From IMG/VR virus record IMGVR_UViG_2693429748_000020: a stretch of 4,691 nt of DNA. One strand, written 5' to 3'. The translations under genes were made by a program, and so were the position numbers. Origin of the DNA: a virus (taxonomy: Duplodnaviria; Heunggongvirae; Uroviricota; Caudoviricetes). This document shows, piece by piece, positions 1-4,538 of this stretch. Every line of letters begins with the position of its first letter. Position 1 is the stretch's first letter. The notes below the pieces were generated by a model, which was given only the letters and a program-made list of their open reading frames with translations, was not told the origin of the DNA and did no database searches.

Positions 1-73
1 CAAAGTGATCTACTATTCCGCGCAGCTATTTAGGAGTAGAGCGATAACGTGTTTTAATTCTGTCTCGTTCATT

Positions 74-133
74 TTACTCACCTGACACGCCACATACCAG
101 AGATTCGTTGTTGCCAAGATCGATAGTATTCAT
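74..133 (-). pseudogene. ydfA-like small prophage gene, copy A, with a 96-bp in-frame internal deletion (19 codons left versus 51 in copy B)
   Basis: Minus-strand ATG at 133..131 and the following 13 codons match copy B (MNTIDLGNNESLV). Window 62-85 and 101-175 align to 2525-2548 and 2660-2733; copy B 2549-2644 is absent, and the ~15 bp right of the junction (86-100 vs 2645-2659) is diverged. The frame is preserved and ends at the same TAA (76..74). Confidence 0.4.
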
Positions 134-438: not shown

Positions 439-858
439 TTATTCCGGTGGGGGATTATCTTTAATCCTGCCTCTCAAATATTTTTCTACATACTCATCGA
501 TTTCTTTTAGCCGGACTTCAAATAGCTCAATCATTCGTTGTTGTTCTGAGCCCGGTAGCTGGTTAAACAACTCAAGAAGTTTTCGTTGGGATTCATTTAA
601 CCACAATTCAGAAGATTCCTGTTCTCCAAAGAGGAGCTCAGGAGGAGATATGCCAAGTGCCTTTCCCAATACGACAGCGTCATGTACTCCAACATTTCTG
701 CTGCCCGCCTCATAGTTACCTATACGCGATTGCGTCCATCCGCAGATTTCAGCAAGTTTTCCTTGAGATAAACCAAGCTTCTGCCTGCGCTCTTTAAGAC
801 GCATTGCAATTTTGTCATTGAGCCTACTAGCGGCAATTTTTTCGTTTTCTTTTTCCAT
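439..858 (-). CDS. Phage repressor A: XRE-family HTH, DicA-like architecture without an S24 peptidase domain (139 aa)
   Basis: ORF with RBS AAGGA 5 nt before the ATG. HTH segment QKLGLSQGKLAEICGWTQSRIGNYEAG. C-terminal motif LLELFNQLPGSEQ parallels LLQLFDALPESEQ in the DicA-like repressor at 2895-3302. Divergent from a Cro-like gene and followed by a terminator. Confidence 0.85.
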   Translation of the reverse strand: MEKENEKIAASRLNDKIAMRLKERRQKLGLSQGKLAEICGWTQSRIGNYEAGSRNVGVHDAVVLGKALGISPPELLFGEQESSELWLNESQRKLLELFNQLPGSEQQRMIELFEVRLKEIDEYVEKYLRGRIKDNPPPE

Positions 859-954: not shown

Positions 955-1197
955 ATGAACAAAATTTCAACATATCGAAAACAGCTTGGGCTGTCTCAAA
1001 GACAACTTGCTGTTCAGTTAGGGTGGATACAAAGCCGACTGGCAAATTACGAAGCAAATTTTCGTACCCCTGGACTAGAGGAGTGCAGAAAAATTGTTTC
1101 TACCCTTAATCGGCTTGGCGCTCATTGTGGACTTGACGATGTATTCCCCCCAGACGGTAAGCATAGCGAAAACAGCATAGGAGCGGTTGATTCATGA
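955..1197 (+). CDS. Cro-like XRE-HTH regulator of cassette A (80 aa)
   Basis: RBS GGAGG 6 nt upstream. HTH KQLGLSQRQLAVQLGWIQSRLANYEA closely parallels the repressor A HTH (LGLSQ..LA...GW.QSR..NYEA). Divergent from the repressor; stop overlaps the next gene start (ATGA at 1194-1197). Confidence 0.8.
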   Translation: MNKISTYRKQLGLSQRQLAVQLGWIQSRLANYEANFRTPGLEECRKIVSTLNRLGAHCGLDDVFPPDGKHSENSIGAVDS

Positions 1198-1463
1198 AAA
1201 TCAGGCATGAGCACATCGAATCAGTGTTGTTAGCCCTGGCAGCCGAAAAAGGGCAGGCGTGGGTCGCTAACGCAATTACTGAAGAATATCTGCGCCAGGG
1301 GGGCGGCGAATTGCCCCTTGTACCAGGCAAGGACTGGAACAATCAGCAGAATATCTATCACCGTTGGTTGAAAGGTGAAACGAAAGCGCAAAGGGAAAAA
1401 ATTCAGAAACTGATCCCTGCGGTTCTGGCAATTCTTCCGCGCGAGCTGCGTCACCGACTCTGA
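1194..1463 (+). pseudogene. ydaT: YdaT-like (CII-analog) gene, copy A, 3'-truncated at the IS junction
   Basis: The first 88 codons are ~98% identical in nucleotides to the intact 140-codon copy at 3590-4012. Identity ends at 1462; from 1463 the sequence is the IS orfB interior, and the TGA at 1461-1463 is created by the junction. Confidence 0.7.
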
Positions 1464-2122
1464 TTTTTCAGCGTTCCCCAGAAGCTTTCCATCGGAGCGT
1501 TGTCGTAACAGTTACCTTTACGCGACATTGATGTTTTCAGACCAGACTGCTCCTGTATGACCCGGTAATCGTATGCGCAGTACTGTGAACCTCGATCAGA
1601 GTGGTGGATTAGCCCGGCAGGTGGGCGCTGGCTCCTGAGCGCCATAAACAGGGCTTTACCTGTCAGCTCTTTTGTCATGCGCTCTCCCATGGCGTAGCCG
1701 ACAATTTCGCACGTATAAACATCTTTGATGCCAGCGAGGTACAACCATCCCTCCTGTGTGGCAACATACGTCAGGTCCGCCACCCAGACCTGATTTGGTG
1801 CTGTAGGAGCGAACGTCTGGTTCAGCAGATTTGGCGCAACTGGCAGATTGTGGTTCGAGTTCGTAGTCGCTCTGAACTTGCGTTTCTGCTTACAGCGTAG
1901 CCTTAGCTCCTTACGAAGACGTGCCAGTCGGTCACGACCAACGATGATGCCATTCTCTGCCAGCTCCGTCTGGAGCCGCCGGGTTCCATATGTTTCGCGA
2001 GTGCGGATATGTGCCACCTTAATCTCCAGTTTTAGCCGCTCATCACTTTGTTTTCTGTCTGAGGGTTCATGCTGTACCCAGTTGTAATAACCGCTCCTGG
2101 ATACACCAAATACCTGACACAT
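1451..2122 (-). CDS. IS3-family transposase OrfB (DDE integrase-like catalytic domain), C-terminally truncated
   Basis: DDE-region motifs are present: WVADLTYV, HHSDRGSQY and CYDNAPMESFWGTLKN. The last codons (QSR-stop, 1451-1462) are read from flanking prophage DNA. The frame stays open upstream to the slippery site at ~2209, consistent with an OrfAB fusion. Confidence 0.8.
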   Translation of the reverse strand: MCQVFGVSRSGYYNWVQHEPSDRKQSDERLKLEIKVAHIRTRETYGTRRLQTELAENGIIVGRDRLARLRKELRLRCKQKRKFRATTNSNHNLPVAPNLLNQTFAPTAPNQVWVADLTYVATQEGWLYLAGIKDVYTCEIVGYAMGERMTKELTGKALFMALRSQRPPAGLIHHSDRGSQYCAYDYRVIQEQSGLKTSMSRKGNCYDNAPMESFWGTLKNQSR

Positions 2123-2157
2123 CGCTTCAATGGGAAATTGTTGTCGCCATTGTTCGA

Positions 2158-2460
2158 TTAACGCGTATTTTTCAGCGACTCCTGTGCAAAATACGCTGTT
2201 GCTTTTTTTAATATATCTCGCTCAAGGCGAGCTTCATTTAACGCCTTACGCAGTTGCAGAATTTCAGATTCCAGTTCAGCCACCGTGCGGGAACCAGGAG
2301 TACCGAGCCCTTTTCTGGCGGCGGTAACCCATTGTCCTAAAGTGCCTTCAGGAAGAGATAATCGGGAAGCGCCTTCACTGATCGAAAGTTGATTTTCAAG
2401 AACCGTTCTGACAGCTTCGGCTTTGAACTCTTTAGAGTAACGTTGGGTTTTTCTGCTCAT
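2158..2460 (-). CDS. IS3-family OrfA (HTH plus leucine-zipper transposase subunit, 100 aa)
   Basis: Protein MSRKTQRYSKEFKAEAVRTVLENQLSISEGASRLSLPEGTLGQWV...LESEILQLRKALNEARLERDILKKATAYFA shows the typical IS3-family OrfA HTH and heptad leucine repeat. Confidence 0.9.
   Translation of the reverse strand: MSRKTQRYSKEFKAEAVRTVLENQLSISEGASRLSLPEGTLGQWVTAARKGLGTPGSRTVAELESEILQLRKALNEARLERDILKKATAYFAQESLKNTR
2203..2209 (-). other. Putative programmed -1 ribosomal frameshift site (A AAA AAA G) linking orfA to orfB
   Basis: A run of seven A on the minus strand lies in the orfA codons TTA-AAA-AAA-GCA. A -1 shift here reads into the orfB frame (..KKSNSVFCTGVAEKYALIEQWRQQFPIEAMCQVFGVS..). This is the standard IS3-family arrangement. 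Confidence 0.5.
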
Positions 2461-2536
2461 TATTAGCTCCTTCTGATGCCATTCTATTTCAGGAAGGAGT
2501 GTCCGTTAAACTCAGGCTACCTCAGTCTCGTTCATT

Positions 2537-2692
2537 TTACTCACCTGAATGTCTTCCCAACCAACGACGTGCGCCAGCTTCGGTTTTAAACGTTTTGCTT
2601 TTGGTATACGTCATGGCGGTGAATGTGCCGTCCTGGTTGGGGAACACGCCGTACACCAGAGATTCGTTGTTGCCAAGATCGATAGTATTCAT
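2537..2692 (-). CDS. ydfA: ydfA-like small prophage protein, copy B (51 aa from the internal ATG; the ORF track extends to a GTG at 2746)
   Basis: The ATG at 2692..2690 is preceded by a G-rich RBS-like stretch (AGGGGAAATGGGG). Product MNTIDLGNNESLVYGVFPNQDGTFTAMTYTKSKTFKTEAGARRWLGRHSGE. It lies directly downstream of the DicA-like repressor in the same orientation, as ydfA does relative to dicA in E. coli K-12 Qin (recalled). Confidence 0.55.
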   Translation of the reverse strand: MNTIDLGNNESLVYGVFPNQDGTFTAMTYTKSKTFKTEAGARRWLGRHSGE

Positions 2693-2894: not shown

Positions 2895-3302
2895 TTATTT
2901 GTTTGCGCTTCTTTTGCGAGCTTTGAGTAGTTCTTCAAAAAGTTTGTTGAAATTTTCAACTCGAGCACGCATCTCTGACAACAGGGCCTTTTGCTCTGAC
3001 TCAGGCAGTGCGTCGAACAGTTGAAGTAACTCTTTTTGATCTTCTGTCAGAATGGCTGGCTGATTATCCGGGATCGGTTCGCCTGGTTGTTTATCTTCAT
3101 CCCCAAAAAGAAGCCAAGTCGGTGAGCACTGAAGCGCTTGGCTCAGTGCGAATAATCTTTTCCCCGCCGGCTGTGTTTCATCTCTTTCCCATTGAGAAAT
3201 TGTTACGTGAGCCACTTTGACCAGCTTACCTAATGCGGCCTGAGACAGTTTTAATTTTTTACGCCTATGTAAGAGGCGAGCACCGAAGGTTTCGTTTTTC
3301 AT
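2895..3302 (-). CDS. dicA: DicA-like prophage repressor (XRE-HTH, 135 aa, no S24 peptidase domain)
   Basis: Strong recalled similarity to E. coli Qin DicA across the C-terminal two-thirds (LFALS..LQCSPTWLLFGDEDKQP...LLQLFDALPESEQ...EMRARVENFNKLFEELLKARKR). The N-terminal HTH is diverged. Divergent from a DicC-like gene. Confidence 0.9.
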   Translation of the reverse strand: MKNETFGARLLHRRKKLKLSQAALGKLVKVAHVTISQWERDETQPAGKRLFALSQALQCSPTWLLFGDEDKQPGEPIPDNQPAILTEDQKELLQLFDALPESEQKALLSEMRARVENFNKLFEELLKARKRSANK

Positions 3303-3378: not shown

Positions 3379-3606
3379 ATGTTGAAAATTGATGCTATAG
3401 CGTTTTTTGGCAGCAAAACAAAGCTTGCCAATGCCGCAGGAGTTAGGCTGGCAAGCATTGCTGCATGGGGGGAACTGGTTCCTGAAGGTCGCGCGATGCG
3501 CCTGCAAGAGGCATCTGGCGGGGAACTTCAGTACGACCCCAAAGTTTATGACGAATATCGTAAGGCAAAACGACCTTGGAAGGTGATTCATGAAAATCAG
3601 GCATGA
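3379..3606 (+). CDS. dicC: DicC-like Cro-type regulator (75 aa)
   Basis: Strong RBS. Divergent from the DicA-like repressor. Product has an HTH-like segment (SKTKLANAAGVRLASIAAW). Resemblance to E. coli DicC is from recall. The 3' end overlaps the ydaT-like start by 17 nt. Confidence 0.75.
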   Translation: MLKIDAIAFFGSKTKLANAAGVRLASIAAWGELVPEGRAMRLQEASGGELQYDPKVYDEYRKAKRPWKVIHENQA

Positions 3607-4012
3607 GCACATCGAATCAGTGTTGTTAGCCCTGGCAGCCGAAAAAGGGCAGGCGTGGGTCGCTAACGCAATTACTGAAGAATATCTGCGGCAGGGGGGC
3701 GGCGAATTGTCTCTGGTACCAGGCAAGGACTGGAACAATCAGCAGAATATCTATCACCGTTGGTTGAAAGGTGAAACGAAAGCGCAAAGGGAAAAAATTC
3801 AGAAACTGATCCCTGCGGTTCTGGCAATTCTTCCGCGCGAGCTGCGTCACCGACTCTGCATCTTCGATACCCTGGAACGCCGTGCATTACTGGCGGCGCA
3901 GGAAGCGTTGAGTACGGCAATTGATGCGCATGATGATGCTGTCCAGGCCGTTTACCGGAAAGCACATTTCAGCGGTGGTGGGTCGCCCGGCGATTCTGTC
4001 GTAGTGCATTGA
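3590..4012 (+). CDS. ydaT: YdaT-like protein (CII functional analog of Rac/CP-933P-type prophages), intact copy, 140 aa
   Basis: 140-codon ORF with RBS GGAAGGTGA, immediately downstream of the cro-like gene. Length and position match YdaT (recalled). Its first 88 codons are duplicated at 1194-1462. Confidence 0.75.
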   Translation: MKIRHEHIESVLLALAAEKGQAWVANAITEEYLRQGGGELSLVPGKDWNNQQNIYHRWLKGETKAQREKIQKLIPAVLAILPRELRHRLCIFDTLERRALLAAQEALSTAIDAHDDAVQAVYRKAHFSGGGSPGDSVVVH

Positions 4013-4056
4013 TTGAAATTAATCGTGCCGGATTGTTTTGTTCGGTATCAGTTAAA

Positions 4057-4077
4057 TGTAACGCTGCGAGCGTTACA
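4057..4077. repeat. Palindrome 1 of 3: tGTAACGCT-gcg-AGCGTTACa (perfect 9-3-9), 13 bp upstream of the replication gene start
   Basis: Perfect dyad read directly from the sequence. It abuts the RBS AGGTGA (4078-4083) of the gene starting at 4090. Confidence 0.6.
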
Positions 4078-4089
4078 AGGTGAAAACAA

Positions 4090-4431
4090 ATGGCTTCAAA
4101 CTGGATAAAGCTCGAGGTTATTACGCCGGATAAGCCGGAAATATTCAGGCTTGCTGAGATTCTGAATATTGATCCAGATGCCGCATTAGGGAAGGTTATT
4201 CGCTTCTGGGCATGGGCGGATCAACAAATGATAGACGGTAATGCAGATTGTAACGCTCGCGGCGTTACAAAAAGTGCAATAGATCGCATCACTTTTATGT
4301 CTGGTTTTGCTGATGCGTTAATTCAGGTTGGATGGCTGGTCGAAAATGACGGTGGGCTTTCTCTACCTAACTTTGAACGTCATAACGGAAAAAGCTCTAA
4401 AAAAAACGGGCGGTTACAAACGAGCGAGTAA
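4090..4431 (+). CDS. Replication initiator, N-terminal domain (phage replisome-organizer-like); frame ends prematurely at 4431
   Basis: RBS AGGTGA 7 nt upstream. The N-terminus MASNWIKLEVITPDKPEIFRLAEIL...FWAWADQQMIDG resembles the N-terminal domain of phage replisome organizer / O-like proteins (recalled). The gene position after the CII analog fits a lambdoid layout. Confidence 0.65.
   Translation: MASNWIKLEVITPDKPEIFRLAEILNIDPDAALGKVIRFWAWADQQMIDGNADCNARGVTKSAIDRITFMSGFADALIQVGWLVENDGGLSLPNFERHNGKSSKKNGRLQTSE
4249..4269. repeat. Palindrome 2 of 3: tGTAACGCT-cgc-gGCGTTACa (one inner mismatch), inside the replication gene
   Basis: Same 8-bp arms as 4057-4077 and 4459-4477. Lies in the coding sequence (codons D-C-N-A-R-G-V-T-K). 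Confidence 0.55.
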
Positions 4432-4458
4432 CAAAAATACGCGAACTGAAACGAAAAG

Positions 4459-4477
4459 GTAACGCTGCCAGCGTTAC
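4459..4477. repeat. Palindrome 3 of 3: GTAACGCT-gcc-AGCGTTAC (perfect 8-3-8), with an extra half-site AGCGTTAC at 4493-4500
   Basis: Read directly. The lone half-site repeats the right arm 23 bp downstream. The site lies just 3' of the 4431 stop, in the only frame that stays open. Confidence 0.55.
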
Positions 4478-4502
4478 ACAAACGGATCAAAAAGCGTTAC
4501 CA

Positions 4503-4538
4503 GAGGAAGAGGAAGAGGAAGAGGAAGAGGAAGAGGAA
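4503..4538 (+). repeat. (GAGGAA)6 perfect tandem hexanucleotide repeat encoding a 12-residue poly-Glu tract
   Basis: Six perfect GAGGAA units read directly from the sequence. They are in frame with the open linker frame of the replication gene. Confidence 0.9.

Follow-up and report, generated by a model that had tools for sequence, protein, structure and literature searches.

A stretch of 4,691 nucleotides (nt) from the IMG/VR virus record IMGVR_UViG_2693429748_000020, a member of the Caudoviricetes, carries a truncated copy of the insertion sequence (IS) IS600 fused directly to a truncated ydaT gene. Two Rac-like prophage control regions of a Shigella-type genome, both decayed, make up the whole stretch, here called the window: cassette A, with the gene order ydfA', repressor, cro-like gene and ydaT', and cassette B, with the order ydfA, DicA-like gene, DicC-like gene, ydaT and ydaU'. 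The cassettes lie in identical orientation, with the IS600 remnant as their connector; genes present in both are distinguished below as -A and -B. The fusion is best explained by insertion of IS600 beside ydfA-B followed by an illegitimate deletion or recombination, a reading to which we assign a probability of roughly 0.8. The window was mapped by reading its sequence and open reading frames (ORFs) and by Pfam and NCBIfam family scans. Loci retrieved for comparison are numbered, and include E. coli VL40 (L001), E. coli O26:H11 11368 (L002) and IMGVR_UViG_2534682164_000011 (L045).

An IS600 remnant joined to a truncated ydaT

The IS600 part occupies 1463..2524 on the minus strand and corresponds to nt 1-1062 of the 1264-bp element, counted from the left inverted repeat (IRL). 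It aligns to full-length 1264-bp copies without gaps at 99.3-99.9% identity, in alignments beginning at 1458, and shows zero differences over 1062 nt when compared with two full-length copies in L013 and one in L017, both Shigella-type loci. When 5426 complete E. coli genomes were searched by megablast with bases 1400..2560, thousands of matches were to copies labelled 'IS3-like element IS600 family transposase', at 99.3-99.4% identity over 1458..2524. The IS3-family similarity suggested earlier from the letters and ORFs (the sequence-only reading) therefore held up against RefSeq copies of IS600.

Within the remnant, which keeps the promoter-proximal end, orfA (2158..2460, minus strand, 100 amino acids, aa) is intact and matches Pfam HTH_Tnp_1 (E=1.5e-20). 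Also intact are the A7G slippery site for the -1 frameshift (2202-2209) and the DDE core of orfB; the corresponding coding sequences (CDSs) in L001 and L002 bear the RefSeq label 'programmed frameshift'. The orfB remnant (1451..2122, minus strand) comprises 220 IS-encoded codons, three further codons (Q-S-R) over which its frame continues past the junction into antisense ydaT, and a stop. It matches NCBIfam transpos_IS3 over positions 106-327 of 369 (E=4.5e-83) and Pfam rve over profile positions 2-102 of 102 (E=5.7e-26), and it keeps the ..PMESFWGTLK motif. Its catalytic core is kept up to ..ESFWGTLKN, and 52 residues have been lost from the C-terminus; the full CDS annotated in L001 is 159 nt longer.

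The left terminus is intact, as had been proposed. A complete IRL (2492..2524, minus strand, TGAGGTAGCCTGAGTTTAACGGACACTCC..) ends at 2524 (..GGCTACCTCA, which is TGAGGTAGCC on the minus strand), the same final base as in full copies such as that of L002 (L002 2567), and 12 nt (2525..2536) separate this end from the stop codon of ydfA-B (2537-2539). The 3' end of orfB and the right inverted repeat (IRR) are gone. Relative to the full element in L002 (1304..2567, 1264 bp), the window copy starts at position 203 from the right end, and the 202 missing bp, earlier estimated at ~200 bp, consist of 43 nt of right-end region and 159 nt (52 codons) of the orfAB frame. The IRR is wholly lost, and a search of the whole window allowing up to 3 mismatches found no copy of it. 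The sequence thus has the near-identity and the frameshifted orfA/orfB with an rve core expected of an IS3-family IS600 and lacks the pair of terminal inverted repeats (TG..CA): the element is incomplete, a remnant that should be immobile because it has a single end and a truncated transposase. Matches in E. coli seemed to lengthen the element by 13-15 nt beyond 2524, an extension that we rejected as chance flank similarity among thousands of copies. Many independent E. coli copies of IS600 do have a loosely similar stretch of 13-15 nt (T-TCG-TTCATTT) immediately beyond the IRL, which may hint at a weak target preference and is probably the product of chance selection.

A comparison of the window with intact ydaT (window 3851-3865 and L045) and with full IS600 (L002 1496-1516) places the break within the junction region (1458..1463) at 1462/1463, where the sequence-only reading had IS600 stop and ydaT-A begin. 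The window equals intact ydaT up to base 1462 (..CGACTCTG/C.., the slash marking the break), and IS600 sequence runs from 1463 (..GGCTCTC/ATTTTTCAGCG in the reference). Across the break, intact ydaT reads ..CACCGACTCTG/CATCTTC.., IS600 reads ..CAGGCTCTC/ATTTTTCAGCG.. and the window reads ..CACCGACTCTG/ATTTTTCAGCG.., such that codon 89 of ydaT-A is joined directly to the IS600 interior at nt 1062. The sole overlap of both parents is CTCT (1458-1461), and it is imperfect, with one mismatched base before the crossover. Even the TGA stop codon of ydaT-A (1461-1463) was made by the junction, TG coming from ydaT and A from IS600. The IS600 sequence at 1463 is interior to the element, and neither an inverted repeat nor a duplication is found there, which agrees with the earlier rejection of a simple insertion. 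The absence of both features, together with an overlap of only 4 imperfect nt, identifies the junction as one of illegitimate recombination rather than insertion.

The truncated gene, ydaT-A (1194..1463, plus strand), retains codons 1-89 and is identical over all 269 nt to the intact ydaT-A of L045; its identity to ydaT-B is 98% over 1188-1462. Both copies score above the gathering threshold of 21 for Pfam YdaT (PF06254), at 38.1 bits for copy A and 43.3 bits for copy B. The match of copy A (Pfam YdaT_toxin, E=2.1e-9) extends over profile positions 6-45 of 92 only. The intact 140-codon ydaT-B (3590..4012, plus strand) encodes a protein that aligns end to end with PDB entries 8bt1 and 3c4r. In a structure-sequence alignment the end of YdaT-A at residue 89 falls at about residue 92 of CP-933P YdaT, and copy A therefore lacks the C-terminal tetramerisation helix that accompanies the N-terminal POU-like DNA-binding domain in YdaT. 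CP-933P YdaT has a hinge at residues 94-99 and a tetramerisation helix, α6, at 100-120, and a construct limited to residues 1-96 stays monomeric and fails to bind the operator (PMC9986795). Since the truncation precedes both hinge and helix, and the slightly longer construct is monomeric and non-binding, YdaT-A is probably inactive and should not bind DNA.

The IS600 insertion in related loci and the origin of the junction

The insertion itself can be traced through relatives of cassette B. In VL40, in flexneri-type genomes and in other Shigella-type genomes, a conserved gene of 67 codons (MNETELKHVIALLLEDAKRLQQLEPN.., with copy A starting MNETELKHVIALLL..) begins 1 nt after ydfA; its product matches no Pfam or NCBIfam family. 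It stands uninterrupted beside cassette B in L011, L012 and L021-L030, the last ten being flexneri-type loci with ipaH-like genes nearby. In the window, comparison with copy A, L021 and L024 shows that only its first 11 nt remain in cassette B (ATGAACGAGAC, 2525..2535, minus strand). The sequence-only reading was right that IS600 interrupts this ORF, and needs correcting as to where: the cut lies inside codon 4, the third base of which is now the IS terminal base, not after it. The trinucleotide GTC at 2525-2527 is the would-be 3-bp target duplication.

An identical junction between the IRL and the 67-codon gene stands beside ydfA-B in L013-L018, L041 and L042, with cassette B at 99.3-99.8% identity; it is absent from the complete E. 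coli genomes. In L013-L018 and L042 the element breaks off at nt 290 (L013 8147-8436), where ..TTAAATG leads into a Rha-family gene at its start codon, whereas L041 keeps 712 nt (5034-5745), up to a cut by the IS911 right end; the contigs of L017 and L019 begin inside IS600. A single insertion has thus suffered three internal cuts in three lineages, at nt 290, 712 and 1062, with the loss always on the IRR side. The shared IRL junction and the different cuts indicate that the insertion is ancestral and that its right side was eroded separately in each lineage. None of L013-L018, L041 and L042 has cassette A upstream, and they differ from the window in ydaT-B as well: the gene carries a 1-nt deletion (annotated as a 101-aa product; equivalent to window 3590-3700) in these loci and in L019, whereas it is intact in the window. 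The window lineage therefore branched before the ydaT-B frameshift.

These data support an origin in two steps, much as the sequence-only reading had proposed. IS600 would have transposed into the 67-codon gene below ydfA-B, 11 nt past its start and with the IRL beside ydfA-B, a step visible in the comparison of interrupted and uninterrupted loci. An illegitimate, essentially homology-free recombination would then have joined IS600 nt 1062 to ydaT-A codon 89, removing the IRR, the final 52 OrfAB codons and everything between; here the junction is observed and the mechanism is what we infer. Lacking an IRR, a TG..CA end and any duplication, the junction is rightly read as the product of a secondary deletion or recombination. 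A deletion between tandem or already linked prophages offers the simplest topology, because the cassettes share their orientation. Cassette A would survive such an event as an orphan immunity module, a repressor/cro pair. Work on the Rac prophage of E. coli K-12 shows its repressor to be essential, because it silences ydaS/ydaT (PMC5700373, PMC5700377), and silencing of this kind could be a reason why such repressors persist.

Several points weigh against this account. No full-length IS600 with a GTC duplication was found at the site: the predicted full-length right junction (..AATTCTGTC/TGAGGTG..) returned no match in E. coli, GTDB, JGI or IMG/VR, and the insertion step is thus inferred from truncated copies only. 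The choice of a deletion over another recombination topology is likewise drawn from a 4.7-kb window that ends short of the outer flanks. The exact 35-nt junction (GCTGCGTCACCGACTCTGATTTTTCAGCGTTCCCC) has no exact-pattern match in GTDB species representatives, JGI metagenomes or IMG/VR, megablast found no junction in the 5426 complete E. coli genomes or in phage and plasmid collections, and the junction-spanning 223-aa OrfB' is absent from ~15 billion proteins by exact look-up. Shigella chromosomes were covered by such exact-protein look-ups only; those for a 40-aa ORF and a 34-aa ORF were also negative. The 89-aa YdaT-A' has been recorded solely in partial genes at contig ends, and this contig-end evidence is biased, as the look-up returns only 89-residue products.

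Those contig ends nevertheless bear on the junction. Contigs ending within 2 nt of it include A-type L005 (100% identical) and L010, and B-type L008 and L009. Intact ydaT-A and ydaT-B are identical over gene nt 127-350, and because a short-read assembly fork inside so identical a stretch needs a cause, the ends at nt 269/270 suggest a real junction in those isolates; the forks are suggestive of the junction in other isolates, not proof of it. In all, eight short contigs from unrelated assemblies (L003-L010) stop no more than 2 nt from ydaT codon 89 (the equivalents of window 1460-1462 and 3856-3858), in part through look-up bias; between them they carry at least five different immunity cassettes, and this codon falls in the 224-nt stretch of allele identity. 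A mosaic hotspot at codon 89 was considered from these ends and dropped on account of the same bias.

Other accounts were weighed. One is a variant of the favoured origin with a different extent of loss: it is possible, though doubtful, that homologous recombination between two full IS600 copies, one in a DUF977 gene downstream of ydaT-A and one in the 67-codon gene of cassette B, first linked the cassettes, and that a local ~2.7-kb deletion then ran from ydaT-A codon 89 to the IS600 position 202 nt from the right end. The pointer to this route is L045. It has the IS630 insertion described below and a 100% identical cassette A with ydfA and ydaT-A intact, followed by ydaU (399 aa, DUF1376), ydaV and a DUF977 gene interrupted at codon 123, where a complete IS600 right end begins; this IS600 has the window orientation and lies 2.5 kb beyond ydaT-A. 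In addition, among 12 distinct full-length IS600 copies in the retrieved loci, only 4 show matching 3-bp flanks; the other 8 are evidently recombinants, which points to frequent recombination between IS copies in these genomes. The L045 contig stops within IS600, however, and its IS600 differs from the window copy at 3 positions within nt 203-691, so that it lends no positive support; no contig connects DUF977'-IS600 to ydfA-B. The same DUF977/IS600 junction recurs in L046, where an apparent IS600 truncation was set aside as a scaffold N inside the IS, not biology, and L044 is without the DUF977 IS600. The sequence-only reading had everything between IS600 and ydaT-A removed: the secondary loss stands, and its extent may be only ~2.7 kb if a full IS600 had joined the cassettes beforehand, as L045 suggests.

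An assembly or scaffolding artefact, that is, a chimera of two repeats, ydaT with its two 98% copies and the multicopy IS600, is very unlikely. The uniqueness of the junction among all collections searched would fit it, and related IMG/VR scaffolds do hold artificial joins marked by N (L043, L046), among them an apparent ydaT-A/cI-B junction in L043 that we discarded as a scaffold N, not biology. Yet the window has no N, the break is interior to both IS600 (nt 1062) and the ydaT repeat, the 4 shared nt are far under an assembler overlap, and contigs of independent isolates end within 2 nt, as a real fork would have them do. We give scarcely any credence to a product of the transposase, in which an internal pseudo-end at nt 1062 attacked ydaT-A in one-ended or intramolecular fashion, or to a deletion by the IS-excision enhancer (IEE). 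Intramolecular transposition and IEE do delete IS-flanking DNA in E. coli with IS3-family elements (PMC9397093), but in those events a genuine IS end is the starting point, and the IS either stays whole or is lost altogether; here IS600 itself is cut. The break is also unlike the IRR (~5/26 positions by eye), which the search of the window did not find, and the TG at 1461-1462 comes from ydaT, the IS reference having TC. None of the 48 IS600 matches in the fetched loci repeats a truncation at exactly nt 1062.

We further consider it improbable that the erosion reflects selection, by which the early-left operon (ydfA and the genes downstream) and the CII-like YdaT would have been silenced and the repressors kept against toxic cro/ydaT-type genes. 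Both repressor genes are intact while IS600 and ydfA-A have been eroded repeatedly. If selection were at work, the window would hold stable orphan immunity cassettes excluding two heteroimmune Rac-like phages. IS600 insertion with a later illegitimate deletion or recombination remains the account that we favour.

Gene content and decay of the two cassettes

Self-comparison of the window reveals three repeats common to both cassettes, at 59-85/2522-2548, 85-161/2644-2720 and 1188-1462/3584-3858. An Rfam scan of the window matched zero RNA families, with no DicF. Both copies of the 67-codon gene are disrupted by an IS, that of cassette A by IS630 and that of cassette B by IS600.

Cassette A opens with an IS630 end (1..30) inserted at CTAG, a tetranucleotide always seen in IS630-flanking sequence; these 30 bases are identical to L045 1962..1991. 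In L045, 835..1995 matches 'IS630-like element IS630 family transposase' at 99.6%, with an adjacent ORF of 343 aa (DDE_3), and the IS630 junction is common to three IMG/VR contigs (L043, L044 and L045). A fragment with leucine-rich repeats (ipaH-like) lies further upstream in L045 and points to a Shigella-type host. Homology to the uninterrupted 67-codon gene begins at base 31, and the first 14 codons of this gene (31..72, minus strand) are recognizable by alignment with VL40, L021 and L024. The sequence-only reading had described an uninterrupted site at 61/62 and a 19-codon ORF (72..13) starting 1 nt after the ydfA-A stop; site and ORF are as described, although the ORF is an IS630-cut stub of the longer gene, made of its 14 codons plus 5 codons and a stop from the IS630 end.

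The adjacent ydfA-A (DUF1391; 74..133, minus strand) has lost 96 bp in frame at 85/86 and keeps 19 of 51 codons. Those 96 bases are present in L045 (2047-2142), L005 and VL40, which are otherwise 99.7-100% identical. L044 has a different deletion, of ~106 bp and flanked by GTG (~60-80), by which most of ydfA-A and the beginning of the 67-codon gene were lost. One lineage has thus lost ydfA-A by two independent deletions (window and L044), with ydfA intact in L045. The cassette continues with a repressor of 139 aa (439..858, minus strand; Pfam HTH_3, E=4.6e-13) and a cro-like HTH protein of 80 aa (955..1197, plus strand; Pfam HTH_3, E=6.7e-10).

Thousands of Rac-like prophages in E. coli have this repressor, flanked by DUF1391 on one side and an HTH/YdaT pair on the other, and cassette A is found in E. 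coli VL40 at 99.7% identity. The cro-like protein is listed in 19110 blocks of a protein/contig collection; in each of the 10 places shown an intact 140-aa YdaT comes after it, and all 10 settings are a Rac-like prophage with recT, recE, ydaE, kilR, DUF1391, repressor, cro, ydaT, ydaU and ydaV. Elsewhere, among the loci examined, cassette A is likewise followed by an intact 140-codon ydaT, then ydaU and ydaV.

In cassette B, ydfA-B (DUF1391; 2537..2692, minus strand) is intact at 51 aa and gives the full-length family match (E=3.5e-28, profile 2-47 of 48). It is followed by a DicA-type repressor (2895..3302, minus strand), which matches the NCBIfam model 'transcriptional repressor DicA' over its full length (E=3.4e-71), and by a DicC/P22-Cro-type regulator (3379..3606, plus strand; NCBIfam DicC, E=1.1e-45; Pfam P22_Cro). 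Beyond ydaT-B, a ydaU-like gene (4090..4431, plus strand) ends after 113 codons, its frame having shifted in an A8 run (4398-4406). The 113-aa ydaU' product occurs in many contigs, the sources of which name Shigella sonnei, including strain 53G. A (GAGGAA)6 repeat follows downstream at 4503-4538; were the frame unbroken, it would be translated as a run of Glu. A 20-22-nt palindrome, TGTAACGCTGCGAGCGTTACA, occurs three times before and within the ydaU-like region (4054-4078, 4246-4269 and 4455-4478), at spacings of ~190-210 nt. The lambda ori is located inside gene O, and the palindromes may be binding sites of a predicted replication origin.

Significance and relation to known systems

The junction is a scar of known parts (IS600, IS630, Rac/Qin-type immunity genes) put together by known processes, with no new mechanism or family seen, and it is strain- or clade-specific. 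It adds a further example of IS elements and illegitimate recombination stitching prophage remnants together in Shigella-type genomes, and has little importance beyond annotation. There the gain is direct, in that an IS600 remnant (pseudogene) with a truncated ydaT beside it describes the region better than a transposase gene and a small 'toxin' would. As the IS600 insertion is truncated differently in each lineage examined, the junction could also serve as a lineage marker for typing.

The window copy shares its IRL, orfA, A7G site and rve/DDE core with IS600 of Shigella flexneri pCP301 (where the match is annotated as 'IS600 ORF2') and of RefSeq E. coli, and differs from the complete element in lacking nt 1063-1264, i.e. 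the IRR and the final 52 OrfAB codons, and in having no recoverable target duplication. Cassette B resembles the dicA-ydfA-ydfB-ydfC/dicC region of the Qin prophage of E. coli K-12, which likewise has DicA/DicC regulators and DUF1391 (YdfA) as the first gene past the repressor. Unlike Qin, cassette B continues to ydaT/ydaU, a Rac-like replication side, and the gene after ydfA is the 67-codon ORF without a family. Both cassettes have the same divergent repressor/cro genes followed by ydaT as the Rac switch of E. coli K-12 (RacR/YdaS/YdaT) and as CP-933P, where YdaT is the CII equivalent, and their relatives carry ydaU- and ydaV-type replication genes downstream, as in Rac. The window departs from the Rac switch in the specificity types of its repressor/cro pairs, which are of the HTH_3 type in cassette A and of the DicA/DicC type in cassette B.

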